This document shows positions 3,925 through 40,828 of a stretch of 64,000 nt of DNA, piece by piece. How positions within the stretch are numbered: the stretch's first letter is position 1; each line of letters begins with the position of its first letter. The position numbers and the translations under genes are program-made. The DNA comes from Octopus vulgaris. Taxonomy: Eukaryota. The stretch lies in contig OX597843.1 in NCBI GenBank assembly GCA_951406725.2, positions 806,001 to 870,000 on the forward strand. Direction: 5' to 3'. The notes beneath the pieces were generated by a model, which saw only the letters and a program-made list of their open reading frames with translations, had not been told where the DNA came from and ran no database searches.

Positions 3925-4078
3925 TGTGTGTGTTTGTTTGCCCACCATCGCTTGACAACCAATGTTGGTGTGTTTACATTCTCGTAATTTAGCAGTACAG
4001 CAAAAGAGACTGATAGAATAAGTATCAGGCTTACAAAGAATAAGTCCTGGGGTCAATTTGTTCGACTAAAGGTGTTGC
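3925..4078 (+). mobile_element. SINE family B, 3' half
   Basis: GCTTGACAACC...GATAGAATAAGT...GGCTTACAAAGAATAAGTCC matches the full copies at 13640 and 32469. Confidence 0.8.
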
Positions 4079-4094
4079 ATAGATTGCATAGGTT

Positions 4095-4540
4095 ATGGAC
4101 ATTTCCTGAATCCTGGACTTTCCAGATGATGTAGGAGAGGGAGGTGGAGTTCTTCTTCTCTATATACCTAAAGGAATGATTGTGTTGTCTAAATTTTTCT
4201 TTGAAATCATTGCCTGTTATGCCATTGTAGTGATAGGAGTGCACTTCTATAGACAACACTCTTTGAAAGGCAGGATATTCCCATTGGGCAGTAGGCAGGA
4301 TTTTGGCAGTCACAAGTTGGAGTATGGAGTGAAACTTGTGGTTTTGTTGTGAGTGTTTATTTTCATTGTAGTATGTAATGTTCAAAACAAAATTATCTAA
4401 GCATTTTATGGAAATTAAAGAGTTTAAGAGTTCTTGGGAAATGCTATCTATTTAGCCCTCCAAGAAACCATCAAGCTATATTATTGGAAGCATCAGAGTT
4501 GAACAAAGGATTAAACCAAGTGATCTTTTCCTTCCGAATT
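4095..4540 (-). pseudogene. Penelope-like retroelement relic (linker plus GIY-YIG endonuclease)
   Basis: Minus-strand translation with stops and frameshifts gives RKEKITWFNPLFN..HFPKN, TCDCQNPAYCPMGISCLSKSVVY and HYNGITGNDFKEKFRQHNHSFRYIEKKNSTSLSYIIW. These match the PLE motifs IIWFNPP, CxCxxxxxCPxxxxCLxxxxVY and YIGxTxxxFKxRxxxHxxSF..TxLSxxIW. Confidence 0.85.
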
Positions 4541-11554: not shown

Positions 11555-12358
11555 AGGTGCGATGGTTAAATTGTCGCAATTTCATATTTTCAATTTTGTG
11601 CATGCGCATTCTTTGTTTTTGATTTTGACAACTGCACCTTACGGTAGGATCTGTTCAGCACCGTCTGTGAGAAAAACAGCACCATGATGCAATTCACTCT
11701 GCCAGAAATTTGGAATCGGCATGCTGTACTGCTTGGAATTCACACTGGAAGTTCCAATATGAACACTTCAGAGTGTTTGGGTGTCAACCTGAGGACACAT
11801 TTGCAATCTGAGGACATGTAGCGAGAGTGATCAAAATCAAACATCCAGTCGACATCATGGTGTTTGGAGTGATCACTAGTGATGGAGACGTTATGCCTCA
11901 ATTCATCTTCTCACACAACCTCAGACTCAACATGAAGGCCTACATCTGGAGGAGGCAGTGCTGCCCCGGGTCTAGAGAGTGGCTGCTGGAAGACCCTGTG
12001 TCTGGCAACAGTACTCTGCATCATGCCACAGAAGCAGGAGAACCCAGTCAGGCCTGTCAGACAATTTCTGCGACCACATCACCCCTAACATCTGGCTACT
12101 AAACTCCCCAAACTGCAATTCCCTTCATTATTATGTATGTGGCTCAGCTGAGTGAGAGACCAACAAGACTCCTTGTAACACCAAAGATGAACTGAATGCA
12201 AGGATTATGGCAGCATTCATCAACTTAAAGAAGGAGACCATCCAGAAGAGTTGAAGAAGATTCTGAAGTCATCTGGAGGCCAAAGTTGAAGCCAATGGCG
12301 ATTTTATTGAATAAATTTACCCTTTAGTATTTCAAGATATTTATATGTAATTTTGGTA
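11554..12358 (+). mobile_element. Tc1/mariner-superfamily (maT-like) transposon relic
   Basis: IKHPVDIMVFGVITSDGDVMP..FIF, TPNIWLLNSPNCNSLHYYVCG (decayed WPPNSPDxNPLDYxVWG) and C-terminal ..EANGDFIE*. Frameshifted and inserted in a TA tract. Confidence 0.82.
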
Positions 12359-12559: not shown

Positions 12560-12897
12560 ATATATATATGAATAAAAAATGGAGTTAACGCAGGTGTAAT
12601 CAAATATTTTTACTTTCGACACATGTTTCGAAAATTCCACTGATACTATTCAAAAGAATAAATGGTATAAACAATGCAATCTTCTCCTCAGGAAAGTGAA
12701 AAAAACGAAACTCGTCAATAAGACATTTTAGCCTTATTCGGTTGATGAATGAATTAATCTTATTGACAAGTTGTTTAAGGAAAACATTCTTAGGTGGAAT
12801 AGGAATGTCCTTAAGAGATGCGTTAATATTCAATAACTCCATATGCTGTAACTATTCAGTTAGCAGGTTAATTGTTAACAAGGTAAAAATACACTCA

Positions 12898-35690: not shown

Positions 35691-35742
<52 letters not shown>

Positions 35743-35831
35743 TAATCCAAACAAGAAAGCACAAAAAAAACACAACAACGCAAGGACGTGGAACAAATAT
35801 AGTATTATTGGATGCTCAGGAAAGAAGGCGG

Positions 35832-35866
35832 GTTTAACGTTTCGAGCAGAGCTCTTCGTCGGAAAC
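35832..35866 (-). ncRNA. Minimal hammerhead-like motif (U4C core variant) in a ~200-bp element, 35740-35935
   Basis: GUUU CCGACGA A GAGC-UCU-GCUC GAAACGUU AAAC. Confidence 0.6.
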
Positions 35867-35942
35867 ATAGAAGGAAAGATCCAGAGAAGGGAAGACAGAG
35901 GAAAAACAAATTGCCAACGGTACACACGCGGTCACATTTTGA

Positions 35943-36077
<135 letters not shown>

Positions 36078-40261: not shown

Positions 40262-40536
40262 ATGTGGAGGCACGTGGCATAGTGATTAGGGTGTTGTACT
40301 CATGATTGTAAGATTGTGGTTTCAATTCCTGGACTGCGCAATGTATTATCCATGCTCTCGAGCAAAACACATAATTTTCTGTTGGGACAGTCCACTCAGC
40401 TGGGAAAAATCAGTAATCCTGGAACTGACCAGCACCCTGTCCTGAAAGGAGATACACACACCACAGAATTTTGGAAACTGGGTTTAGGGGCTTACAGCTT
40501 CATAAGGCGAGCCTTTAACATATATATATGTATATA

Positions 40537-40735
40537 ACGGGAAGGTTTACGAAAATAAACAAAAGATGAAGACAGGTGGAGTACAAACAAACAATTGTAT
40601 TAGTATGGCGCTCAGGAATAGAAATAAAACAAGTCTTTTACGTTTCGAGCCTACGCTCTTCGACAGAAAGATACACAGAAAAGAAACAAGGAGAGAAACA
40701 AACAGAGAAAAAAATGTGTGTAGGAGCTAACGGTC
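40537..40735 (-). mobile_element. ~200-bp element E carrying a minimal hammerhead variant at 40635-40670
   Basis: CUUU CUGUCGA A GAGC-GUAG-GCUC GAAACGUA AAAG. Near-identical copies at 44400, 59273 and 63820. Confidence 0.8.
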
Positions 40736-40828
40736 CTATACAAACATAAGTATTTTTGTGTCTATGTGTGTGTGTATGTTTTAGTGTCTATCTCTATTTC
40801 TTTCTGTGTATATGTGAATATATATGTG

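Follow-up and report, generated by a model that had tools for sequence, protein, structure and literature searches.

The subject of this study is a recurrent non-coding element of about 200 bp in Octopus vulgaris, found in a stretch of 64,000 nucleotides (assembly GCA_951406725.2, contig OX597843.1, positions 806,001 to 870,000 of the forward strand) that is called the window here. The copy at 40537-40735 on the minus strand is almost certainly the terminal repeat (3' pseudo-long terminal repeat, pseudo-LTR) of a Penelope-like element (PLE), left by 5' truncation. It contains a minimal hammerhead ribozyme motif in which position 6 of the core is U instead of A, and this A6U change is supported as a trait of the lineage, not a product of decay. 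The argument starts from two features:

40537-40735, minus strand: 3' pseudo-LTR left by a Penelope-like element of family A (N7=C subfamily) after 5' truncation; it ends at a TA repeat (from sequence comparison).
40635-40670, minus strand: minimal type I hammerhead motif with stem I CUUU/AAAG, core CUGUCGA, an extra A, stem II GAGC/GCUC, GAAA, palindromic ACGU and a GUA triplet.

Read on its own strand, the motif is CTTT CTGTCGA A GAGC GTAG GCTC GAAA CG TA AAAG, with U6 at 40663 and a predicted cut between 40639 and 40638. Core positions are numbered by homology to the minimal hammerhead consensus.

Identity of the element

The 200-bp element is continuous with reverse transcriptase and endonuclease (RT-EN) frames in near-identical long copies, and we can therefore regard it with near certainty as the 3' pseudo-LTR of an autonomous PLE that has multiplied recently. 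Across 50 loci, the 3' end of the copies is fixed and leads into TA repeats, and the 5' ends vary, with two head-to-head inversions (L024 and L043). Four of these loci extend more than 1 kb upstream into a frame with an RT thumb and a GIY-YIG endonuclease, and at L052 an RT-thumb and EN frame of 409 codons ends about 730 nt before the U6 motif. A protein search with 200 aa of the frame returned 14,051 candidates, 150 of which were scored, mostly with equal scores; the 20 long-frame loci are those with the longest frames (1024-1214 codons from stop to stop) among the 150. All 20 have a U6 motif at the 3' end, 500-730 nt past the frame, and 14 have a second motif on the same strand at the 5' end, also with U6. 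Median identity over 2 kb was 99.3-99.8% for 18 of them, the other two being an older chimera (97%) and a locus left out for wrong boundaries. The 14 tandem loci have a unit of 4.4-4.6 kb, and since the same short TA stretch is found at all 14 junctions, it is part of the element.

The 987-aa open reading frame (ORF) of locus L084 matched the Pfam family RVT_1 (E 3.9e-8; 33.7 bits, above the cut-off of 29.6) and, below the gathering score, GIY-YIG (E 0.0056). Direct reading of the ORF revealed YIDD and DKG motifs, the stretch IIYCISCSLC..LYIG with two downstream His residues, a CCHH signature, and a linker, CSRPRCRTC (CX4CxxC), ahead of the endonuclease; a Pfam search with the C-terminal 387 aa alone returned no family. 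The element thus combines a single ORF with RT, a C-terminal GIY-YIG domain with CCHH, pseudo-LTRs in partial tandem, 5' truncation and inversion, as EN+ Penelope-like elements do, with a linker in the CX2-5CxxC range and a (TA)n target bias as in Neptune-type elements (PMC8557442). On the tested features the element is an EN+ PLE, and its features are Neptune-type.

The copy at 40537-40735 is 88% identical to both terminal repeats of the long copy L086, its subfamily continues into RT-EN at L051 and L052, and short copies match the repeats of long copies subfamily by subfamily. An earlier note on the window, based on its letters, had inferred from the 200 bp a separate mini-element, retrozyme-like and non-autonomous, that PLE proteins would mobilise in trans. 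This is largely refuted, and very improbable, given that an autonomous element with a long RT-EN frame has the same 200 bp as its terminal repeat. The note had also conceded that the family would lose novelty if it were an ordinary PLE pseudo-LTR, which proved true of the element but not of its core.

One part of the mini-element idea does survive, namely that there is a preferred unit of about 200 nt. We determined 5' ends in 90 copies, being 90 of the first 100 listed matches to a tail pattern that is independent of the motif and has 16,530 matches in the genome. Counted from C3, the ends lie between +56 and -1266, those of old copies depending on imperfect references; most copies are short, and 42 of the 90 end in a common 30-nt zone between -60 and -90. 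Upstream partial copies within long elements reach at least 500 nt in 13 of 14 cases and never stop in that zone (0 of 14), so the short copies may derive from a different RNA end, and animal retrozymes have been proposed to come from pseudo-LTRs (bioRxiv 10.64898/2026.07.22.740005). The unit does not, however, stand alone. Subfamily-diagnostic letters are common to short and coding copies, and 14 of the 90 copies extend beyond -150, some into the ORF; in five of these 14 the fetched DNA ends before the copy does. Among the loci examined the 200-bp unit never forms head-to-tail arrays, no genome-wide tandem search having been made, and the two inversions at L024 and L043 are head to head.

Some long loci deserve separate mention. 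L094 (G000:C2:77210758-77220757), together with L052, represents a chimeric long copy with a young-subfamily 5' repeat and an older-subfamily 3' part, the latter recurring 37 kb away with the same private change in stem II. L103 is a head-to-tail tandem of the whole element, with three motifs 4.47 kb apart.

Position 6 across the genome

The 27-letter motif was searched for as exact matches in the 2.8-Gb genome (227 contigs). Among the 16,332 matches, position 6 was U in 15,730 (about 96%), C or G in 422 and A in 180. The reversed-sequence control gave no match, and a relaxed hammerhead descriptor found 237 matches in 1.12 Mb of fetched DNA, which had been chosen for these motifs and is hence enriched, against none in the reversed DNA; the motif is therefore not a chance pattern. 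The earlier note had proposed that the element amplified with A6U and had suggested a genome-wide check of copy number and fixation at position 6. Both the count of more than 15,000 exact U6 matches and the presence of U6 in the 5' and 3' repeats of nearly identical long copies agree with that proposal. In the tail-anchored sample, 13 of the 90 copies are without a recognisable motif (truncated, deleted or decayed) and four failed a substitution filter; the 73 remaining copies were aligned, and 72 of them have U at position 6. U6 thus runs through every subfamily in the sample.

We dropped the idea that the oldest family A subfamily has the canonical A6. Among its first 100 listed matches, 78 have U6, 15 C6, six A6 and one G6, and since this subfamily is already mostly U6, the A6U change predates or coincides with it. 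The C6 and A6 counts look high for decay alone, and position 6 may have fluctuated before U was fixed. Many A6 matches lie in the flanks of U6 subfamilies, as back-mutations would. An alternative register, in which GAAGA is read as G5-A9 with a 3-nt insertion or with changed C3/U4, was also rejected: it leaves stem II with one pair, and the register is fixed by A6 copies in the same context. In sequencing contigs from four runs under four organism codes, no other letter was found at position 6, but this was likewise so at N7, and the contigs are uninformative on the point; summed depth over the motif in these contigs was about tenfold that over the flanks.

Outside the core, the motif has the make-up of the minimal PLE hammerhead, with stems I and II, an extra nucleotide after A9, a palindromic 15.2-16.2 and an NUH triplet, while its U6 departs from the core CUGANGA. 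Two further minimal hammerhead families with A6 were seen in the fetched DNA (L013:2553(+), L038:2532(-); L072:872(-), L104:1266(-)), of which one combines a canonical core with a 10-nt loop II and the other has a U3-A8 core.

Selection on the motif

Selection has very probably acted on the hammerhead fold despite A6U, because change at the subfamily level is confined to N7 and H17, positions that catalysis leaves free. Both are unconstrained in the hammerhead consensus (Naghdi et al. 2020, PMC7151607). Conservation of the stems relative to the flanks had been raised in the earlier note, and the motif proved far less variable: two of its 30 columns (N7 and H17) vary, against 32 of 83 in the flanks (Fisher p 9e-4). 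A column was counted as variable when a second allele occurred in at least six of the 73 copies, with CpG sites and anchor columns excluded. Over four thresholds p ranged from 1.6e-4 to 6.5e-3, values to be read with the columns not independent and the sample filter slightly favouring conserved motifs.

In the 73 copies N7 is U in 35, A in 21, C in 12 and G in five, and H17 is A in 52, U in 19, C in one and G in none, with one gap. The other core bases are kept, with G8 in 72 and G12 in 71 of the copies and A9, A13 and A14 in every copy. Two random columns would be N7 and H17 in about 1 of 630 draws, or in 1 of 30 if loop II and the extra A are counted as free as well. The tree built from the flanks (midpoint root, direction taken from branch lengths, oldest group picked by a pattern in which most columns are fixed) is ladder-shaped and implies about five changes at N7 and three at H17. 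In the stems, 96% of cells are paired.

A sister family with U4C

A second family, B, whose protein is 60% identical to that of family A, has a core change at position 4 (U4C). A pattern allowing other loops gave 16,724 matches; among the first 100 listed, 85 have a 3-nt loop, and 61 of those have C4. Fourteen long-frame family B loci all carry the motif, which reads CCGACGA in 13 and is present in both repeats in 10. Families A and B both carry GAAGAGC..GCTCGAAACGT, with stem II and GAAACGU unchanged, and the outer pair of stem I is swapped from C-G in A to G-C in B.

Family B has recently multiplied, to judge from its many copies of equal protein score, and its 3' untranslated region is about 2.9 kb long, compared with 0.5 kb in family A. 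Near L261, three adjacent family B ORF matches about 6.2 kb apart represent a whole-element head-to-tail tandem. At L252, the terminal repeat of a family B copy lies about 300 nt past the RT thumb, the endonuclease and most of the untranslated region apparently having been deleted. A third related family is seen at L222, with core CCGACGA, stem I CUUU/AAAG, loop AAU and an RT fragment upstream.

Function of the motif

On balance we favour, by inclination more than conviction, the view that the U6 hammerhead of the pseudo-LTR survives as a weak predicted ribozyme assisted by dimerisation or by protein. Residual cleavage may well be the selected function, a prediction that we hold with similarly restrained confidence. 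The element's protein would nick TA-rich DNA, and reverse transcription would begin inside the element RNA at the short UA-rich junction just past the repeat, such internal priming setting the fixed 3' end about 105 nt downstream of the cut site. The majority of cDNAs would be incomplete, often ending 60-90 nt upstream of the core, and so yield the 200-bp unit, whether by run-off or by stalling near -80, perhaps at a pseudo-LTR transcription start like that of Drosophila Penelope (PMC2377424). A cut would separate the priming site from the body of the element, so that copies with the whole motif would need RNA that is uncut or re-ligated; for the same reason a fast ribozyme would carry a cost, and slowing of the core would be tolerated. 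In a lizard PLE, cleavage by the hammerhead depends on the presence of the element's protein, and reverse transcription is initiated internally (PMC11167929); a natural A6C core is weakly active in Mg and works well in Mn (PMC7151607, PMC3088659).

Several observations weigh against an active ribozyme. In RNAfold, the hammerhead fold of the 36-mer (-5.9 kcal/mol) lies above the minimum (-6.3 kcal/mol), and in the 199-nt context the pair probability is about 0.17 for stem II and 0.01-0.02 for stem I. When two motifs were cofolded, the stem II strands paired across copies and the ACGU dimer was not seen, and cofolding thus lends no support to the dimer model. The earlier note had suggested looking for covariation in the stems; one compensatory pair was found, in stem I between families A and B, with no clear excess over shuffles (25 of 500). 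Copies starting at the cut site are not in excess (two of 90 within 5 nt), and a clean A6 ancestor could not be demonstrated from the sampled subfamilies. Young long family B copies have a U-U mismatch in stem I besides U4C, and two older family B copies have G17, which would fit relaxing catalysis. From the literature, single changes in the CUGA turn were weakly active in a pairwise scan of a canonical hammerhead (PMC9901934). For the lizard PLE, the available text reports that catalytic mutants had no effect on insertion in vitro, that no RNA-seq reads ended at the cut site, and that priming took place at a site without homology to the target, which differs from the TA pairing supposed here (PMC11167929).

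The main rival reading is that the motif no longer cuts and is kept as a folded RNA handle for protein binding, dimerisation or packaging, A6U and U4C having removed catalysis at no cost. We consider this possible but rather unlikely. N7 and H17 could equally be positions tolerated by a protein that reads the fold, cleavage is dispensable for insertion of the lizard element in vitro (PMC11167929), mutants of CUGA are weakly active (PMC9901934), and the two lineages carry different changes in the U-turn, with the stem I mismatch of young family B in addition. A mere handle does not, however, sit easily with the retention of G8, G12, A9, A13 and A14, or with H17 in family A being drawn only from the cleavable bases (no G in 73 copies). 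Moreover, the minimal RNA for insertion of the lizard PLE is without the upstream part of the core (PMC11167929), and the two other hammerhead families in the same genome keep A6. Conservation of a dead relic for a reason at the DNA level or in splicing, either as an internal promoter or as a pyrimidine tract and AG acceptor running into the core, is improbable. A long pyrimidine tract does immediately precede the core in families A and B, A6U and U4C both leave the core pyrimidine-rich, and the 42 of 90 ends at -60 to -90 could mark a transcription start. Introns occur in the 5' region of some PLEs. In Drosophila Penelope, the pseudo-LTR contains the promoter, and helix I marks the end of an intron (PMC2377424, PMC4209133). 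Yet this leaves unexplained why the 3' half (stem II, GAAA, ACGU, H17 not G) is kept across families that are 60% apart, and why N7 changes freely to G and A.

A bolder extension of the weak-ribozyme reading, which we put forward tentatively and regard as doubtful, is that two recently active PLE lineages independently weakened the U-turn (by A6U and U4C) while keeping the other catalytic bases. They would then be protein-gated ribozymes in which the RT-EN protein compensates for the lost contact, and the weakening would have been selected because a cut would part the priming site from the coding body. If true, broken-core PLE hammerheads would form a large class that is invisible to current descriptors, and some PLEs reported to be without hammerheads would contain them.

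Other features of the window

Four further remnants of the two families are present in the window:

44401-44598, minus strand: second family A remnant, N7=A subfamily; motif at 44490-44525 with a CpG-type change at 15.2 (C>T).
59274-59457, minus strand: third family A remnant, N7=A subfamily, with TA repeats on either side; motif at 59364-59399 with a CpG-type change, C11.1>T.
63822-63960, plus strand: fourth family A remnant, with a deeper 5' truncation; motif at 63846-63880 with one A fewer at H17/stem I.
35740-35943, minus strand: family B (sister family) remnant; its motif, at 35832-35866, has core CCGACGA (U4C), stem I GUUU/AAAC, the same stem II and a 3-nt loop.

The four motifs listed in the earlier note, 40635-40670(-), 44490-44525(-), 59364-59399(-) and 63846-63880(+), are correct in position and strand, and all have T (U) at position 6. 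The missing A that it reported in the last copy is real, the shortfall lying at H17/stem I. Its description of a minimal type I hammerhead with stems I and II, an extra A and no stem III was borne out as the Penelope-type layout, as was the freedom of position 7, which is A or C among the window copies and any of the four bases, by subfamily, genome-wide. All four copies are genuine, but a fifth relative at 35832-35866(-), with core CCGACGA, had been overlooked and was found in a local search. The length of about 200 bp holds for the first three copies, the fourth having about 140 bp, and the TA-rich setting holds for the 3' ends of copies 1-3, which adjoin TA repeats, but not for every 5' end. 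The other three of the four copies are 80-94% alike to the first.

Rfam covariance models gave no match at E<=10 for 40530-40745 and, among the 150 of 523 matches listed for the whole window, only microsatellite-driven miRNA matches; the output of a repeat search of the window was dominated by microsatellites. Elsewhere in the window, 48165-48901(-) holds a C-terminal fragment of a non-LTR retrotransposon across two frames (zf-RVT, E 2.3e-6), with what we take to be a restriction-like endonuclease motif. Three short frames without a Pfam match resemble a piece of a Tc1/mariner transposase (11812-12099(+)), a Penelope N-terminus (12603-12851(-)) and a piece of a Penelope endonuclease (4056-4451(-)).

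Relation to known systems and meaning

The hammerhead motif descends from the minimal PLE hammerhead but departs from it in the core. Like the motifs described by Cervera and De la Pena (2014, PMC4209133), it is of type I, lacks stem III, and has an extra nucleotide after A9, G10.1-C11.1 and a palindromic 15.2-16.2, and like them it lies in pseudo-LTRs, mostly of truncated elements scattered as single copies; the Acropora Neptune motif of their Fig. S3 has the same layout and a 4-bp stem II. Published precedent thus exists for the extra A, the lack of stem III, the palindrome and the dispersal of single copies (PMC4209133). All cores in Fig. S3, however, keep A6 and U4, and the variant reported there is a compensated U3-A8, whereas the family A change is uncompensated and occurs in young copies with long ORFs. 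Core variants would have been missed in that survey, as its descriptor required the core. Neptune-clade EN+ PLEs (Craig et al. 2021, PMC8557442) share with family A a single ORF with RT followed by GIY-YIG, the CX4CxxC linker, partial tandems, 5' inversions and the (TA)n bias, and differ from it in that the family A hammerhead core is non-canonical.

Natural substitution at position 6 has a precedent in the A6C hammerhead of phage Bcep176 (Perreault 2011, PMC3088659; Naghdi 2020, PMC7151607), which concerns one phage locus with measured activity; in family A it is A6U, in more than 15,000 copies of a minimal motif known here from sequence. The Poseidon PLE of Anolis (Frangieh et al. 2024, PMC11167929) likewise has a hammerhead in its repeat, AT-rich targets and a 3' end formed by internal initiation, and there protein-assisted cleavage and non-homologous priming have been demonstrated. 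Animal non-LTR retrozymes (bioRxiv 10.64898/2026.07.22.740005, PMC7761336) resemble the short copies in being short non-coding hammerhead sequences related to a pseudo-LTR, but they are tandem, non-coding and non-autonomous, whereas the family A repeat is the end of a coding element.

Our literature search, whose coverage did not extend to the largest survey (Lunse et al. 2017), found no natural A6U hammerhead, and a search for octopus, hammerhead and Penelope found no report of the A6U variant. For Octopus vulgaris, a repeat annotation from 2026 gives 31 recently active PLE families, and the word ribozyme is absent from its available text (Bonar et al. 2026, PMC13282606). Family A itself may already be catalogued in Repbase, Dfam or that library.

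The role of hammerheads in PLEs is an open question in the available literature, one paper suggesting that they merely parasitise the element. Family A provides a natural experiment on this question: it has multiplied to over 15,000 copies, some of them long and nearly identical, despite a core change expected to cripple cleavage, with the rest of the motif kept and N7 and H17 turning over. Searches that demand CUGANGA miss whole high-copy families of this kind.
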